Of a stretch of 64,000 nt of DNA, positions 40,898-46,499 are shown piece by piece. The DNA is from a virus. Both the position numbers and the translations under genes were made by a program. Where the stretch lies: positions 34,377-98,376 of IMG/VR virus record IMGVR_UViG_3300027777_000028; one strand, given 5' to 3'. A model generated the notes under the pieces. It was not told the DNA's origin, made no database searches, and saw only the letters and a program-made list of their open reading frames with translations. Numbering within the stretch: the stretch's first letter is position 1; every line of letters starts with the position of its first letter.

Positions 40898-41677
40898 ATG
40901 ATTAAAAAGTTAATACATTTTTCTGATCTACACATCCGTCTTTTTAAAGATCACGATTTGTATAAATCAATTTTGGAAACTGCAATTGAACAATGGAGAG
41001 AGTTAGAACCTGATCGTATTGTATTTACGGGAGATCTTGTTCATTCTAAAAACCAAATGACACCTGAACTTATTGAGATGGTTAGATGGTTATTGACTGA
41101 ATGTTCTAGTATTGCAAAAACAATCATTATACTTGGAAACCATGATACAAATTTAAACAATCAAGACAGGTTAGACTCCATTACACCTATTGTAAATACC
41201 TTACACGATGAAAATATTTTATACTTCAAAGATAGAGGTGTATATGAAGATGAAAACATCAGTTGGTGTGTGTATTCACAATATCAAGGAAATATTCCAC
41301 CTGACATTACAGAATCAAAAGGTAAAAGAATTGGATTGTTTCACGGACCAATTCAAGGAATGAAAACAGACCTTGGATTTGACTTTGGTGAAGAGGCTTA
41401 TGACGTTGAAAAGTTTGATGGACTTGAAACCGTACTATGTGGAGATATTCATAAAAGACAAGAGTTTAAATTCAATACGGGAAAGGGTTATATGATTGGG
41501 TCTATAATTCAGCAGAACATCGGTGAGAGTATTGGAAAACACGGTTATGGTATTTATGATGTTGAAACAAAGGAATATAAATACGTTGATCTACCAAACC
41601 CAAAACCATTTTTGAAGTTCTCCATAAAATCATTTGAAGATATTGAAAATGGATTTGAAAAACTCCAAAATATTTAA
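40898..41677 (+). CDS. SbcD/Mre11/gp47-like metallophosphoesterase nuclease (short, catalytic domain only)
   Basis: FSDLH, FTGDLVH, LGNHD, LFHG, GDIHKRQ, GSIIQQNIGE. Confidence 0.85.
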   Translation: MIKKLIHFSDLHIRLFKDHDLYKSILETAIEQWRELEPDRIVFTGDLVHSKNQMTPELIEMVRWLLTECSSIAKTIIILGNHDTNLNNQDRLDSITPIVNTLHDENILYFKDRGVYEDENISWCVYSQYQGNIPPDITESKGKRIGLFHGPIQGMKTDLGFDFGEEAYDVEKFDGLETVLCGDIHKRQEFKFNTGKGYMIGSIIQQNIGESIGKHGYGIYDVETKEYKYVDLPNPKPFLKFSIKSFEDIENGFEKLQNI

Positions 41678-42437
41678 TAGTCAAACAATGCAGGCGGTGT
41701 CTGCATTTTGTGAATCACAGGAAATTAAAGATATTGATAATTTTATTTACCTATGTTTCAAACAGGGATTTGATATAAAGAAGTATGGTCTTTTGGGAAA
41801 AACACTTAATGAAGGTGAAAAAGACTTAAAAACGGTTGGAGTTGAAGAAAAACAATTAATAAAAGAGATAATTGTTGAAAAACTGGTGGAAGTTCCTGTT
41901 GAAGTAATCAAAGAGGTTGAAAAAATAGTTGAGGTTATTAAAGAAATACCTGTTGAGGTTATTAAAGAGGTTGAAAAAATTGTCACAAAAATAGAATACA
42001 TTAGTGACAAAACAACTGAAAATGAACTGTTGTTAAAAATACAACAGTTGGAAATCGAACTGTCAAGAAATTCCGAACAGTTGGATGAATTGTTGTCAAA
42101 AATAGAACACTTAAACGGAGAAATTTCGATTAAGTCCACAGAAATTGACAACATTAGACAAGAATTTTCAATTAAAACAAAAGAAATAAAAAATTTTTAT
42201 CAAAATGAAATGTCTAAAAAAGATAATGAGTTAGACGAACTTAGACATAATTTAGACGATCCCGTAACAAATAATAAGGTAAATATGTTACAAGAGACTT
42301 TACAAAATCTAAGAAATGAACTACAACAAAAGAACGAACAAATAAAAGAATTAGAAAAAATAAACAGAGACTTTTTGAATGGTAATCAAAATCAAGCATA
42401 CCTCCTTAAAGGATCAAATTTAAATAGAAAATTATGA
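41634..42437 (+). CDS. Coiled-coil protein with EKIVEVPVEVIKEV repeats
   Basis: VPV/IPV repeats followed by a long heptad region. Confidence 0.7.
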   Translation: MKILKMDLKNSKIFNSQTMQAVSAFCESQEIKDIDNFIYLCFKQGFDIKKYGLLGKTLNEGEKDLKTVGVEEKQLIKEIIVEKLVEVPVEVIKEVEKIVEVIKEIPVEVIKEVEKIVTKIEYISDKTTENELLLKIQQLEIELSRNSEQLDELLSKIEHLNGEISIKSTEIDNIRQEFSIKTKEIKNFYQNEMSKKDNELDELRHNLDDPVTNNKVNMLQETLQNLRNELQQKNEQIKELEKINRDFLNGNQNQAYLLKGSNLNRKL

Positions 42438-42508
42438 TAACAGAAATTTTAGTATGGTTTATAATGAGTTATGGTAGATCTAACCTAAATGATGGTTTAT
42501 ATAAATAA
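42434..42508 (+). pseudogene. Truncated 5' remnant homologous to the start of gene 43291-43641
   Basis: MITEILVWFIMSYGRSNL aligns without gaps to MTQLILWIIIAYGLSNI (T, W, I, YG, SN identical), then stops after 24 codons. Confidence 0.7.
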
Positions 42509-42571
42509 AATTATGTAAAACATATAGGACATTTTATAAATAACACATATTTATATAAAAAAAATATAATT

Positions 42572-43294
42572 ATGAAAGTATGTAAAAAATGTAATTTGAA
42601 AAAAACATATGAAGAATTTTCTAATAATAAAAATGAAAAAGATGGAAAAAATTCATATTGTAAAGAATGTGAAAAAAATAGGAAAAAACTTTACAGAGAA
42701 AAAAATAAAGATATATTAAATGAAAAAGCGAGAGAATGGAGAAAAAATAATCTCGATAGATATAACGAGAATATGAATAGATATTTGGAAAAAAATCCAC
42801 ATATGACCTCAAAGGAAAGAGCCCGAAAATATAGGGAAAAACAAGAATGGAGAGATAAATTTAATGAATCATGTAGGAAATATTATCTTAAGAACATCGA
42901 AGAAGAAAGAAAAAAAAGAAGAGAATATTATTTTAAAAACAAAGAAAAAGAAAGAAAAAAAAACGATGAGTGGAGAAAAAATAAATTAAAAACTGATGGT
43001 TTTTTTAGAATGAAAAGGAGATTAAGAGAAAGAATCAGGGATTACATGAAAGGAAACCATATTGGTAAAAAAACCAAAGAAATTGTGGGTCTTGATTATG
43101 AAGAATTCAAAACTTATATTTCTAATAAGTTTACTGAAAATATGAATTGGGATAATTATGGTGATTGGCATTTAGACCATATTATACCACTCTGCGAGGC
43201 TAAGACTGAAGAAGAACTATTTAAACTAAATCACTATACAAACCTTCAACCGTTATGGGCTGAAGATAATTTAAAAAAAAATAGAAAATTATGA
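42572..43294 (+). mobile_element. Free-standing HNH homing endonuclease gene
   Basis: N-terminal CKKC...YCKEC, basic helical linker, C-terminal WHLDHIIPL...NHYTNLQPLWAEDNLKK. Confidence 0.8.
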
Positions 43295-43641
43295 CACAAT
43301 TGATACTATGGATTATTATTGCTTACGGATTAAGTAACATTGTTGTTTACGGAAGTATTTTTAACGGACCGAGAAATAAAATTAATAAATGGGCGGAAAA
43401 TGAATGGACAGCATTTAATGGTGTTTGGGTTTTTATATCTAATATGATTAAATGTATGATGTGTTTTGGGTTTCATTGTGGATGGTTCTTATCCATTACA
43501 ATTTACTCACCAACATACCAAATATTGGAAGTTACTCCTTGGGCATCTTGGTTCTTTGATGCTTTTTTAGCTTCAGGAGCGGTATGGGCGATAAATGGTG
43601 TAATAGAATGGTTTGAAGAAAATAGACCTAGTAATAATTAA
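43291..43641 (+). CDS. Small membrane protein, DUF1360-like
   Basis: Three hydrophobic segments and a CMMCFGFHCGW motif. Confidence 0.7.
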   Translation: MTQLILWIIIAYGLSNIVVYGSIFNGPRNKINKWAENEWTAFNGVWVFISNMIKCMMCFGFHCGWFLSITIYSPTYQILEVTPWASWFFDAFLASGAVWAINGVIEWFEENRPSNN

Positions 43642-43651
43642 AAATAAATAA

Positions 43652-43816
43652 ATGGAAACAAAAAAAGTTATCGAAGTAAATCTCGGAGTTGGAATGGATC
43701 AGATTTTTCCACAACCAATACAAATTGTTGTAAGCGACGAAATTGAAGAAATGAGAGATGAATATCCTGCAAATGTAGAAGGATCAGAAGAATTTAATAA
43801 TTTTAATAATAAATAA
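43652..43816 (+). CDS. 54-aa acidic hypothetical protein, not in the ORF track
   Basis: METKKVIEVNLGVGMDQIFPQPIQIVVSDEIEEMRDEY...NK*; fills the gap between two genes. Confidence 0.55.
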   Translation: METKKVIEVNLGVGMDQIFPQPIQIVVSDEIEEMRDEYPANVEGSEEFNNFNNK

Positions 43817-43818
43817 AA

Positions 43819-44118
43819 ATGGGGAAAGCAGCAAAAAAACACAGAGCAAAAGTAGCGGCAAGAAATTTAAGATTGTCACAAAAAAAATCAGCAATGCAAA
43901 AAGCATTTGACACTTTGATACAACAACAAATGGAAAAAATGAAAGAAGACCAAGAGTTAACAGCTCAAGTTGGAGATCAAGAAATGAATTTTGAAATTGT
44001 TGAAGATAGAGTTGTTGAACACGCATTTAAATTCACACCAAACGAAGAAGAGTCGGCAAAAATCAATAAAGAATTTGATGAGGTTTTTGAAGAAGAAGAA
44101 ACATCCGAGAACCAATAA
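43819..44118 (+). CDS. Hypothetical protein, basic N-terminus and acidic C-terminus
   Basis: MGKAAKKHRAKVAARN...EEEETSENQ. Confidence 0.7.
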   Translation: MGKAAKKHRAKVAARNLRLSQKKSAMQKAFDTLIQQQMEKMKEDQELTAQVGDQEMNFEIVEDRVVEHAFKFTPNEEESAKINKEFDEVFEEEETSENQ

Positions 44119-44126
44119 AGATTGAT

Positions 44127-46499
44127 ATGGATTTATTCAATCCACCAAAATTATTTAATTACAACATAATGATAAAAGATTTAGACTTTTCAAAGTTTGA
44201 AAACCCGACGATACAAGTCGTATGGGAAGATTTACCAGAAAATTTTACACAAGACAAACTTAAAAGTGTTAAACATTATTTTTCAAAAAAGTATAACACA
44301 ACAAACGTTAATGTTTTAACAAAGGCAAAGAATGTTGAAACTGAAACAACACAAAGTATTGATGTGTCGGTGAATATTACTGACACACAATACCAACTTG
44401 ATCTTATTACCAATTACCTTAAATCAAAAGGACATGAAGACAAAAGTGATGATGTGTTAAACATCAACAGAATGGTTGAAAATAAAATGTCTGGTGATGA
44501 AGAAACTTCAGCACAATTTAAGAAATGGTATATTCGAAATATTGAGTTTTCAAACTTTTTATCATACGGTGAAAATCAAAGATTAGATTTTGATAAGTTA
44601 AATGGAATTGTGGTGGTTGAATCTGATCCTCCTAATTTCGGTGGAAAAACCGTATTAACGGTGGATCTTTTAATGTTTTTGTTTTTTAACGAAACAACAA
44701 AGACAACAAAGGCCGAAGAAATATTTAACCGATTTTCAAACAAAGACAAAGTTCATGTTAAAGGTGAAATCACAATTGATGGTGAAGATTATATTATTGT
44801 TAGAAACATCGAAAGAAAAATGTCCAAAAAGGGTGAATGGAATGTCAAAACCGAATTGGACTTCTTTAAAAAATTATCTGATGGGTCTTTATTAAATTTT
44901 ACGGGAGAACAAAGAAGAGAAACCGAGGCCTTCATTAAAAATTCAATTGGAACAAAAGAGGACTTTTTAATGACAATTCTTACAACAGGATCAAACCTTG
45001 AAGATTTATTGGAATCAAAACCAACGGCAAGAGGTCAGGTATTATCAAGATTTATGGGACTTGAGTTTTTGAAAAGAAAAGAAGAAGTTGCAAAAGAAAT
45101 ATACTCTGAGTTCTCAAAACAAAAAATTTCAAACATATATTCTTCAGAACAATTAAAAAGTGATATTGAAACACACCAAACTTCGATCATAGAATTAAAG
45201 ACTACAATTGCGGAAAGCAAAAAAAGTTTATCTGAAGTTGATGAAGCGATTGTAAAAGGAAAAACATATCGTGATGATATGTTAAAAAGAAAAAATACCA
45301 ATATTGATCAAGAATTAAGTTTATTAAATCCTGATAAAACCAAAGATGAAATAAAAGAAATTGAACGTGAGAAATCAGGTTATTTAATAAAAATATCTGA
45401 AATTAAAGTCGTTGAACCATCTGAGTTTTACCATGAGGATAAACATGATGAGATTAAAGAACAATATAATAATGTTTATAAAGAGGTTATTCAAATTGAC
45501 ACTGAAATCGCATCAATCAACAAATTAAAGTCTTCAGTTGAGGGTGGAATTAAATGTGAACACTGTGGGATTGAGTTGATGAACGCAACAATCACAAATT
45601 CGAAAATTGCAGAATTAGATGGACTTATTGTGCAAAAAAACACAAAAACAACACTTATGACGGATTTATCCAACAAAGAACAAAGTTTTGTGAAACTCAA
45701 AAGAGAATTTGATGAATATGAAAAAAATAAGTTGGTTAAAGAAAAATATGAAATATCTGTTGAAAGTTGTGATTTAAAGATCGGTTCTTTAAACGATAAG
45801 ATTAAACGTTGGGAAGAAATACAAGATAAGATTTCTGAAAACCAAAAGATTGATTCATTGTTGATCAAAGCTGACGTTAGATTGGATGAATTGGAACTTC
45901 AAAGAAGAACGATCAGTAATTCAATTCTAACAAACGAGGGATCAATTAAATCACTTGACGAAAAGATTGATAACAACAAAAAAATGATTGTTAAAATCAA
46001 AGAGGAAGAAGAGAAAGAAAAAATCTTTAAGATCTATTTAGAACTTTATGGTAAAAATGGTATTTCAAAAATGATTATGAAAACTATGATGCCTCTAATT
46101 AATTCTGAACTACAAAGACTTATGGAAGATTCTTGTCATTTCAAATTGGAAATTAGAATTAATGATAAAAATGAGGTTGAGTTTATTATGACTGATAATG
46201 CTAGTGGTATTGAGAAATTAATGACTTCAGGATCAGGATTTGAAAAAACAATTTCATCTTTAGCTTTGAGATCAGTTCTTACTAAGATCGCAAGTTTGCC
46301 AAAACCAAATTTGGTAGTTCTCGATGAGGTGTTTGGAAAAATCGCCAATGACAACTTAGAAATGGTCTATGAGTTCTTCACTAAGATTAAAGATTACTTT
46401 GAAAAGATCTTTGTTATTAGTCATAATAGTATTGTGTCAACTTGGGGTGACCATGTGGTGAAAATTAAAAAAGAAAATAATTTGTCAAAAGTTTTGTAG
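44127..46499 (+). CDS. SbcC/Rad50/gp46-like ATPase with a ~130-aa N-terminal extension
   Basis: IEFSNFLSYG, variant Walker A PPNFGGKT, Zn hook CEHC, signature SGSGFEK, Walker B VVLDEVFG, H-loop VISHN. Confidence 0.9.
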   Translation: MDLFNPPKLFNYNIMIKDLDFSKFENPTIQVVWEDLPENFTQDKLKSVKHYFSKKYNTTNVNVLTKAKNVETETTQSIDVSVNITDTQYQLDLITNYLKSKGHEDKSDDVLNINRMVENKMSGDEETSAQFKKWYIRNIEFSNFLSYGENQRLDFDKLNGIVVVESDPPNFGGKTVLTVDLLMFLFFNETTKTTKAEEIFNRFSNKDKVHVKGEITIDGEDYIIVRNIERKMSKKGEWNVKTELDFFKKLSDGSLLNFTGEQRRETEAFIKNSIGTKEDFLMTILTTGSNLEDLLESKPTARGQVLSRFMGLEFLKRKEEVAKEIYSEFSKQKISNIYSSEQLKSDIETHQTSIIELKTTIAESKKSLSEVDEAIVKGKTYRDDMLKRKNTNIDQELSLLNPDKTKDEIKEIEREKSGYLIKISEIKVVEPSEFYHEDKHDEIKEQYNNVYKEVIQIDTEIASINKLKSSVEGGIKCEHCGIELMNATITNSKIAELDGLIVQKNTKTTLMTDLSNKEQSFVKLKREFDEYEKNKLVKEKYEISVESCDLKIGSLNDKIKRWEEIQDKISENQKIDSLLIKADVRLDELELQRRTISNSILTNEGSIKSLDEKIDNNKKMIVKIKEEEEKEKIFKIYLELYGKNGISKMIMKTMMPLINSELQRLMEDSCHFKLEIRINDKNEVEFIMTDNASGIEKLMTSGSGFEKTISSLALRSVLTKIASLPKPNLVVLDEVFGKIANDNLEMVYEFFTKIKDYFEKIFVISHNSIVSTWGDHVVKIKKENNLSKVL

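Follow-up and report, generated by a model that had tools for sequence, protein, structure and literature searches.

A free-standing HNH endonuclease gene between a gene-start remnant and a chimeric membrane gene in an uncultured phage

The 64-kb stretch of viral DNA analysed here (hereafter, the window) raises the question of how an HNH endonuclease gene came to lie between two neighbouring genes while a second, diverged start of the downstream gene stands ahead of it. The window belongs to an uncultured phage lineage in which genomes measure roughly 300 kb and which probably infects Bacteroidota; even the nearest cultured phage is very distant, the Rad50-like protein being only 27% identical to that of Microcystis phage Mel-JY01. 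An initial annotation, made from the letters of the window, had proposed that the endonuclease inserted within the first ~15-18 codons of its target gene, duplicated and replaced the 5' end of that gene with a recoded, cleavage-resistant N-terminus, and mimicked the coupling junction of the gene upstream. Comparison with related loci from metagenomes supports part of this proposal and leads to a different account of the rest.

Anatomy of the locus and its HNH gene

The 16-mer AAATAGAAAATTATGA occurs in exactly two exact copies in the window, as had been claimed, against a chance expectation of about 0.002 copies calculated from base composition. In agreement with the ORF list, the first copy closes the upstream gene (...GSNLNRKL*), whose TGA overlaps the ATG of a 24-codon stub (42434) as ATGA, and the second closes the HNH gene (...NLKKNRKL*) and opens the intact membrane gene. 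The features of the locus are as follows:

41634..42437, + strand: upstream gene, resident; 267-aa ORF, coiled-coil protein, function not assigned
42422..42437, + strand: first copy of the 16-mer, at the resident junction of upstream and membrane genes; HNH-free relatives keep 13-15 of the 16 bases there
42434-42508, + strand: stub ORF, MITEILVWFIMSYGRSNLNDGLYK*, 24 codons, starting at the ATG of the first 16-mer copy
42434..42475, + strand: leftover 5' end of the resident membrane gene, codons 1-14, MITEILVWFIMSYG, from base matches to relatives
42471..42474, + strand: left recombination joint with ATGG microhomology, from alignment and direct reading
42476..42508, + strand: donor-type upstream gene tail, last 11 codons (RSNLNDGLYK*)
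42509..42571, + strand: non-coding 5' region of the cassette
42572..43294, + strand: free-standing HNH endonuclease gene, 723 bases, 240 aa
43279..43294, + strand: second copy of the 16-mer, an exact match, HNH tail (N-R-K-L-stop) over the membrane gene start codon
43291..43641, + strand: functional, chimeric membrane gene, 116 aa, DUF1360-like, starting MTQLILWIIIAYGLSNI...
43570..43595, + strand: interval of the right-hand homologous crossover, from sliding identity and alignment

The HNH gene is a separate ORF between two others and is neither intron- nor intein-borne; no Rfam family, group I introns included, matches 41500-44200. Its product is predicted to carry a CxxC...CxxC zinc ribbon at its N-terminus, followed by basic helical repeats and, towards the C-terminus, the catalytic motif WHLDH...NLQPLW..DN..K. 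Across 19 relatives C7, C30, C33, D202, H203, N224 and N233 are invariant and C4 is kept in at least 90%; D202-H203 (in WHLDH) would form the catalytic Asp-His pair, with the His as general base, N224 (in NLQPLW) would be the conserved structural Asn, and N233 (in DN..K) a distal metal-binding residue. The protein matches PHROG 1035 (E = 2e-25), the best PHROG match being labelled endonuclease VII, and the 3' end of the gene is 74% identical in DNA to HNH genes annotated in Flavobacterium elemo phages. Pfam PF01844 (HNH) is matched by 7 of the 19 relatives (best E 2.4e-4), the window's own protein falling below the Pfam and NCBIfam thresholds without a match. Sequence and profile searches of the PDB returned no nuclease relative, their top match being an unrelated repeat protein, and an AlphaFold2 model built on the 19-sequence alignment is confident for the zinc ribbon and helical repeats only and unreliable in the catalytic domain, where a beta-beta-alpha-metal fold would be expected (pLDDT 35-70 at residues 150-240). 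The ORF is, as part of our best explanation of the locus, a candidate free-standing homing endonuclease gene.

The non-coding region ahead of it, almost identical in loci L004 and L137, contains the orphaned start codon of a donor membrane gene (ATG 42513-42515, followed by TAA), the block ACATATAGGACATTTT and, at 42547-42554, the promoter-like ATATTTAT, a motif found 8-25 bases ahead of many of the window's start codons. Every HNH gene at the membrane gene site is preceded by the conserved blocks ACA..AT..ACAT and ATATTTAT. The inverted repeat TATAAATA-ACACA-TATTTATA that had been noted does lie at 42535-42555, but it is not conserved: its 3' arm alone coincides with the ATATTTAT block, and other cassette variants lack its 5' arm. 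We rejected it as a feature of the element and treat it as incidental. A reading of TATAAATA as a T4-type late promoter was likewise unconvincing (18 matches against 10.9 expected, 18 being reached in 5 of 100 shuffles). An exact search of viral contigs with a 20-base cassette spacer yielded no new joints, its matches being the contig of L004 and two chance matches in giant-virus bins.

Relatives with and without the HNH gene

The closest flanks to those of the window are found in the HNH-free loci L017 and L029, where the Mre11-like and Rad50-like genes are 87-92% identical and the upstream gene is collinear at 77-87% identity. In both, the upstream gene passes by an ATGA overlap into a membrane gene of the MTTQVLVWFVMSYG type without any stub, and in about 45 HNH-free loci the membrane gene directly follows the upstream gene, again without a stub. 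As the initial annotation had predicted, an allele of the stub's type (MTTQ[VI]LVWF[VI]MSYG, where it had expected a MITEILVW-type start) exists in HNH-free relatives, alongside the MTQLILW start, and runs straight into the gene body; stub-like fragments are confined to HNH-bearing loci.

Codons 1-14 of the stub share 35-37 of 42 bases (83-88%) with the membrane gene starts of HNH-free L017, L018 and L046, and 27 of 42 aligned bases (64%) with the window's own intact start, 850 bases apart. Because the stub matches the 5' ends of relatives' membrane genes, its proposed homology with the diverged intact start is real. The other end of the stub has a different source: positions 42471-42508 are 89.5% identical over 38 bases to the end of the upstream gene of L026, and the upstream genes of L025-L030, L036 and L038 end in ...SSNLN[DN]xLYK*. 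Since this segment is an L026-type upstream gene tail, in frame with the stub and providing its stop codon, the stub is a fusion of two different genes, namely the resident codons 1-14 and an 11-codon tail of a foreign-type upstream gene. Codon 14 is thus an illegitimate recombination joint and not the site of insertion; what stands of the earlier placement is that the element inserted where the membrane gene begins. At this joint, seen in one contig only, resident ...TTATGG meets donor ...CATGG; with the true donor not in hand, the length of the microhomology is estimated at 2-5 bases.

The intact membrane gene belongs to a family with 762 homologues in metagenomes, and DUF1360 (Pfam PF07098) is matched by 7 of 18 family members (best E 1.2e-5), the window's own protein giving no match to PF07098. 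The gene is of donor origin from 43291 to ~43569 and resident from ~43595 to 43641, as determined by sliding identity and alignment: left of the crossover interval, identity is 92-100% with L003 and L004, and right of it 95-100% with L017 and L029. As the foreign tract ends only at ~43570-43595, ~280 of the 351 bases, or about 80% of the gene, have been replaced. The functional start codon and N-terminus did arrive with the HNH gene, as the idea of a duplicated and replaced 5' end implied, but the replacement extends far beyond the N-terminus. Nor was that N-terminus recoded by the element, MTQLILW being a natural allele also present in the HNH-free L005-L008 and L010-L015.

The HNH gene is sporadic at one fixed site among otherwise collinear genomes. 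Its relatives in L137-L157 (50-99% identity) all lie directly before the membrane gene and carry the conserved promoter-like blocks. Between the window, L003, L004 and L137-L140, identity stands at 96-99% over the 3' half of the HNH gene together with the 5' part of the membrane gene, whereas the flanks of these genomes are only 76-80% identical; the cassette has spread across diverged genomes, with co-conversion of the membrane gene flank, the ancestry of which disagrees with the rest of the genome. In every HNH-bearing locus the functional start codon is supplied from the HNH 3' end, and in L137-L157 the resident start codon persists ahead of the cassette, as ATGA or as a decayed ATAA, and still supplies the stop codon of the upstream gene. 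The position of the joint varies by locus, at about codon 1-3, 7, 14 or 19. A second, independent joint is found in L004 and L137, which come from two different metagenomes and carry the same donor sequence joined at resident codon 19 by the microhomology ATGGT(T)TA. In L156 the stub is 10 codons long and belongs to the other allele type, and in L058, L150 and L156 a related HNH gene stands beside a stub-type allele. L057, L148 and L153, considered as an HNH-membrane gene pair in foreign contexts, proved to be the same syntenic locus with extra genes inserted, and so provide no evidence of ectopic movement of the pair. Among the loci compared we recovered none with the arrangement predicted for the donor (...SSNLNDGLYK*, AATT, ATG, TAAAACATATAGG and the HNH gene, without a stub).

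Origin of the repeat and of the mosaic

The exact repeat has a likely explanation in the gene tails themselves. Genes of the HNH family have, at many unrelated sites, a ...K-x-x-K-[IL]* tail of their own that overlaps the following ATG, and the tail seen in the second copy recurs in L003, L004, L009, L137-L142, L149 and L153. An N-x-[RK]-[LIV]* tail is in turn native to the family of the upstream gene, the protein of which gives only weak matches of coiled-coil type. The 16-base repeat would thus arise because these native tails are alike and both end just before an ATG, the 16/16 identity lying at the top of a 12-15/16 baseline. Since the ATGA tail of the HNH gene is native to its family, it is not mimicry of the upstream junction, and we also rejected the idea that its last codons were borrowed from the upstream gene. 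It is rather doubtful, though it deserves some weight, that the identity instead reflects shared descent, either with the ATGA-coupled upstream gene tail (N-R-K-L*) as the scar of an earlier HNH deletion between the two AATTTAAA(T) stretches or through short-patch gene conversion between the copies after arrival of the HNH gene. The similarity does extend, apart from a single 6-base indel, to aatttaaa and tagaaaattatga; exactly the junction of the window results when ...AATTTAAAT is joined to AGAAAATTATGA of the HNH tail; and other lineages end instead in ...N[DN]xLYK* plus a spacer. Nevertheless, intermediate native tails overlapping ATGA occur without an HNH gene in L008 (KDTL*), L016 (KDIL*) and L019 (NENL*), and in other genomes with an HNH gene only ~12-13 of 16 bases agree between the two tails.

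For the locus as a whole, we consider intronless homing with one-sided, microhomology-mediated repair to be the probable explanation. The ancestor would have had the ATGA-coupled upstream and membrane genes seen in L017 and L029. In a cell also infected by an HNH-bearing relative, the genome without the HNH gene would have been broken, and the relative's genome would have served to repair it. On the right, repair would have ended in an ordinary homologous crossover in the conserved 3' part of the membrane gene (~43570-43595). On the left, where the upstream genes are too diverged for a homologous crossover, the broken end would have been trimmed to resident codon 14 and joined by the 4-base ATGG microhomology to a donor point 11 codons before the end of the donor upstream gene. 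The expected product is the order upstream gene, 14-codon stub, donor upstream tail, orphan ATG, promoter-like region, HNH gene and membrane gene, the last ~80% donor and ~20% resident. We infer that the HNH enzyme itself made the break, that the cut probably fell a short way downstream of codons 14-19, within the 5' part of the membrane gene, and that the allele of the donor would be immune to the enzyme; the left joints could also have formed by illegitimate recombination unrelated to an HNH-made break. Counted against this explanation is the upstream gene of L004, itself a mosaic that it does not fully account for.

The alternatives fit the same observations less well. An element adapted to life in coding sequence, which inserted at codons 15-18, brought along no more than a recoded N-terminus resistant to cleavage, and evolved its own version of the upstream coupling junction, would account for the stub, the second diverged start, the exact 16-mer and the functional start codon delivered by every HNH-bearing locus. 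We regard it as quite unlikely, given that the 3' third of the stub is donor upstream gene sequence, the replaced tract covers most of the membrane gene, and the supposedly recoded allele occurs in HNH-free genomes while related HNH genes stand beside the stub-type allele; moreover, the HNH tail is found at unrelated sites, and the joints differ among loci. In-place tandem duplication of the gene start with later divergence, or a functional leader peptide, could be suggested by the ATGA coupling and open 24-codon frame of the stub, and by the equal length of the stub in L004. The stub is, however, far closer to the genes of other genomes than to its neighbour and its 3' end derives from a different gene. 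The two 24-codon stubs stop at different codons in different frames, the stub ATG has decayed to ATA in many loci, and no conserved peptide is visible across the independent stubs of the loci compared, all of which makes such an origin very improbable; the stub is most likely a repair leftover, that is, junk. That the mosaic is a metagenome assembly chimera of HNH-bearing and HNH-free strains is more improbable still. The arrangement of the window does come from one contig only. Even so, an assembler would have had no k-mer to join on, since the parental types have only ~4 bases in common at the left joint and no long stretch of identity in the right interval, and the analogous arrangement of L004 was assembled independently in two metagenomes (L004 and L137).

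A further reading, which we hold tentatively and somewhat short of an even chance, is that the HNH gene makes up, together with the 5' part of the membrane gene behind it, a self-contained element that replaces gene starts. Every arrival would leave a stub that later erodes down to the upstream stop codon, which would give the series observed among the loci: 19, 14, 7 and ~3 codons, followed by ATGA and finally ATAA. To judge from the independent joints at codons 14 and 19, the cleavage zone would lie immediately ahead of the invariant VYGSIF block, and some ATGA-coupled upstream tails could be scars of past HNH loss. Such an element would be the phage, 5'-end counterpart of the mobile-ORF hybrids of fungal mitochondria.

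Known homing systems and significance

In T4 homing endonucleases, one-sided homing with microhomology joints and co-conversion of the flanks is established (PMC2988022). As with T4 SegB, SegF, SegG and MobE (PMC2988022), the endonuclease gene of the window lies between conserved genes, is present or absent among relatives, and is proposed here to spread by double-strand-break repair with co-conversion of the flanking gene. It also overlaps a neighbouring stop/start codon and has a promoter-like motif where the T4-type free-standing genes have their own promoter. It differs in its phage lineage and in its N-terminal zinc ribbon and basic helical repeats, and, unlike in T4-type homing, the left flank was joined illegitimately instead of by homology, leaving the stub of the target gene visible. 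One-sided homing by illegitimate double-strand-break repair comes from laboratory crosses with the T4 td intron (PMC2988022), which share with the window homology on one side, a microhomology joint on the other and extensive resection. Those crosses were engineered and involved an intron, whereas the footprints here are natural, concern a free-standing gene and record at least two independent events.

The closest analogue is, in mirror image, the gene hybrid created by mobile ORFs in fungal mitochondria, described for atp6 of Allomyces macrogynus and for atp6, atp9, cox2 and nad3 of Glomus (PMC3630166). There, too, an endonuclease ORF brings a foreign gene end that becomes the expressed one, and the native end stays adjacent as an unexpressed remnant that, unlike the inserted end, resembles close relatives. 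The differences are that the 5' end and not the 3' end is replaced, in a phage and not a mitochondrion, by an HNH and not a LAGLIDADG or GIY-YIG enzyme; the endonuclease of the window forms no in-frame fusion with the host gene, and the remnant is fused to a piece of a donor upstream gene. Like F-CphI, of the DHHRN family with its Endo VII motif (PMC6083498), the predicted enzyme would be a free-standing homing endonuclease of a phage and a member of the His-Me finger superfamily. We rejected membership in the DHHRN family, whose DHDH core stands between CX2-4C and CX2C and precedes a conserved Arg and Asn (PMC6083498), as the core of the window is D-H-I-I, with no adjacent cysteine pairs, the nearest lying ~170 residues away. 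In ICP1 phages, nuclease genes stand at the boundaries of recombinant segments (PMC10448857), much as the HNH gene of the window stands exactly at the edge of a tract with ancestry unlike its flanks; that study concerns different phages, and a term search of it found no microhomology, illegitimate joints or gene remnants.

The locus clearly documents, in nature, a process that is largely known, and the element is not of a new kind. In annotation, it is better to mark the 24-codon ORF as a gene remnant, and phylogenies should handle the membrane gene as a chimera. Base by base, the locus shows a selfish nuclease gene crossing between phages too diverged, on one side, for normal recombination, and the transfer of its cassette swaps alleles of a conserved host gene. 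The one-sided, microhomology-joined events predicted by laboratory T4 crosses have been preserved in nature at least twice with the same donor type, and the two joints narrow the probable zone of nuclease cutting, making the target directly testable.

Gene layout between the Mre11-like and Rad50-like genes

The window belongs to a 98-kb viral contig with a rated completeness of 34%. Contigs of relatives are up to 270-320 kb long, and all cultured phages are only remotely related to this lineage. The coiled-coil gene, the 24-codon stub, the HNH gene and the membrane gene were all found where the initial annotation had placed them, as was the inverted repeat, and no RNA families or introns were detected in the region. 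The features are as follows (asterisks in peptide tails denote stops):

40898-41677, Mre11/SbcD-like gene, one flank of the locus
41634-42437, upstream (coiled-coil) gene, ending ...NLNRKL*
42434-42508, 24-codon ORF (stub)
42471-42474, fusion joint of the stub (ATGG)
42513-42515, ATG within an AATT-ATG-TAA behind the stub
42535-42555, inverted repeat
42572-43294, HNH ORF (240 aa), ending ...NLKKNRKL*
43291-43641, membrane-protein ORF (116 aa)
44127-46499, Rad50/SbcC-like gene, the other flank

In the 240-aa protein, a zinc ribbon (CxxC...CxxC) precedes basic helical repeats, and the C-terminal part carries the motif WHLDH...NLQPLW..DN..K. Residues C7, C30, C33, D202, H203, N224 and N233 are invariant between it and 19 relatives, and C4 is kept in at least 90% of the latter. 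It matches PHROG 1035 (E 2e-25), and Pfam HNH is hit by 7 of the 19 relatives; unlike the F-CphI family, it lacks the DHDH-plus-cysteine signature. The HNH gene of L157 (L numbers denote loci from related contigs; 573-1285), 99.5% identical to that of L145, has a frameshift near residue 115, owing either to decay of the endonuclease gene or to an error in sequencing. Small membrane proteins akin to the 116-aa protein form a large and well conserved family: it has 762 homologues, and 7 of 18 members match DUF1360.

Relatives carry other endonuclease-related genes around this locus. The Mre11-like and coiled-coil genes of the window overlap by 44 bases in different frames (41634-41677), and this native junction is entered in relatives (L038:2584-3436, L007:2509-3280, L036:2650-3415, L018:184-880) by a module in which a related HNH gene (~41% identical) accompanies the gene for a 53-aa CcdA-like antitoxin (PF07362, E 9e-7). 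In L038, this HNH ends ...SNK-INGTEVLRNI*, a duplicate of the tail of the Mre11-like gene (ENGTEKLLNI*) together with the beginning of the gene that follows. Modules that combine an antitoxin with an endonuclease are known from 'moraphages' (PMC12619734), possibly the lineage of the window. In L155 (230-2055), the Mre11-like gene is split into 214-aa and 74-aa parts with a 306-aa ORF between them that carries a DUF559 endonuclease-like domain (E 5e-5), a genes-in-pieces arrangement. L057 (4058-5626) has, directly after the membrane gene, a 522-aa gene with an intein containing a LAGLIDADG domain (PF14890, E 1e-9; PF14528, E 1e-7).

Resident and imported sequence at the two joints

Most of the 52 loci collected through the membrane protein have neither HNH nor stub. 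L017 and L029 are the closest to the window in their flanks, with 87-92% identity for the Mre11-like and Rad50-like genes. In both, the tail of the upstream gene is ...GSNLN[NR]R[LI]* with an ATGA overlap with the membrane gene, which starts MTTQVLVWFVMSYG... and MIILMWILASYG..., respectively; as the initial annotation had anticipated for HNH-free relatives, this stub-type start runs straight into the gene body. Over stub codons 1-14, 35-37 of 42 bases agree with the starts of the membrane genes in L017, L018 and L046, versus just 27 of 42 with the window's own intact start. This similarity stops at 42471, and the remainder (42471-42508) is 89.5% identical to the 3' end of the L026 upstream gene, which in that lineage ends ...SSNLN[DN]xLYK*. 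The stub is therefore a hybrid, in which codons 1-14 of the resident membrane gene are followed by the last 11 codons of an upstream gene of foreign type. In our reading, the ATG at 42513-42515 started the membrane gene of the donor and is now orphaned; a promoter-like region and then the HNH gene follow it.

Between 43291 and ~43569, the window shares 92-100% of its bases with L003 and L004, both HNH-bearing, and ~45-70% with L017 and L029. Starting at ~43595, its identity to L017 and L029 rises to 95-100%, and that to L003 and L004 falls off. This switch of ancestry points to an imported tract of ~1.1 kb (42476 to ~43580) and to a chimeric membrane gene. Such a mosaic might also arise by chimeric assembly, as the joint of the window is seen in one contig only, but the parental types have no long identical stretch in common at either joint, which makes an assembly artefact unlikely. 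The true donor was not found among the recovered loci.

Gene tails, the repeated 16-mer and promoter-like blocks

The 16-mer AAATAGAAAATTATGA noticed in the initial annotation is present at 42422-42437 and 43279-43294, the only exact copies in the window (~0.002 expected from base composition). The proposal that the element had evolved to mimic the upstream coupling junction is, however, not supported. At unrelated sites, over 50 relatives of the HNH share the ending ...NLKK-[SGN]-[NDR]-K-[IL]..., several of them overlapping the ATG of the next gene, which argues that the NRKL* tail is native to the HNH. The tail of the upstream gene, N-x-[RK]-[LIV]*, is likewise native: HNH-free genomes have variants of it, such as KDTL*, NENL* and NKRV*, in overlap with ATGA. 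HNH tail and upstream-gene tails generally agree at 12-15 of 16 bases, and the 16/16 of the window is the upper extreme of this range, although the copies could also share an older common origin, as a scar or through gene conversion.

In a metagenome scan, all HNH relatives of 50-99% identity lie directly before the membrane gene. The blocks ACA..AT..ACAT and ATATTTAT precede each relative at this site; the latter, found 8-25 bases upstream of many start codons of the window (e.g. 2187, 11146, 32408, 47458, 50742, 55047, 61096 and 63618, + strand), is probably a phage-specific promoter element.

Independent joints and a probable homing mechanism

The window, L003, L004 and L137-L140 agree at 96-99% over the HNH 3' half and the membrane-gene 5' part, while the flanks of the other loci are 76-80% identical to the window. 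The HNH 5' half exists in two versions (98-99% identity of the window to L004 and L137, 73% to L003 and L138-L140), which makes the cassette (spacer, HNH gene and membrane-gene 5' part) itself recombinant. L004 and L137, from two different metagenomes, have the same donor tail, spacer and HNH as the window; their resident stub reaches codon 19 (MEILVWFILSYGLMNIMVY), with the joint at ATGGT(T)TA in another frame, and deletion could not convert either arrangement into the other. The stub of L156, MIQLVMFTCT*, is 10 codons long and matches the MTQLVLW-type start at 16 of 19 bases, while the functional membrane gene there belongs to the ILVWFIMSYG type.

In most other HNH-bearing loci, the resident remnant is a start codon plus a few bases, as ATGA or as ATAA, where the start codon is lost and the stop codon of the upstream gene retained. 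Stubs may thus erode until checked by selection on that stop codon. In L138 (2447-2500) and the same region of L140, the leftover ATGA start lies in an open frame with the HNH start 18 codons downstream, so that the HNH could be translated with an N-terminal extension through coupling with the upstream gene; the leftover ATG has changed to ATA in L003 and L139. The upstream gene of L004 (240-540) is a mosaic: its 5' part resembles the window, its last ~150 bases resemble L026, and it ends early (...SSNLND*). An earlier exchange at this locus may have left this pattern.

From these comparisons, we read the event as intronless homing with downstream-flank co-conversion. Homing repair would co-convert the downstream flank, and the left end would be repaired illegitimately at microhomology because the upstream genes are too diverged. 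The joints at codons 14 and 19 suggest a break at or just downstream of them, beside the invariant VYGSIF block. T4 homing endonucleases provide documented cases of both co-conversion and illegitimate repair, among them one-sided events with joints at microhomologies and with long resection (PMC2988022), and nuclease genes have been described at the edges of exchanged segments in ICP1 phages (PMC10448857). The closest analogue of the end result is found in Allomyces atp6 and in Glomus atp6, atp9, cox2 and nad3, where a foreign C-terminal gene end arrived with a mobile endonuclease ORF and the native end stayed as a remnant (PMC3630166). Whereas the C-terminal end was swapped in those hybrids, the window is their mirror image: a 5' end, in a phage, with an HNH endonuclease.
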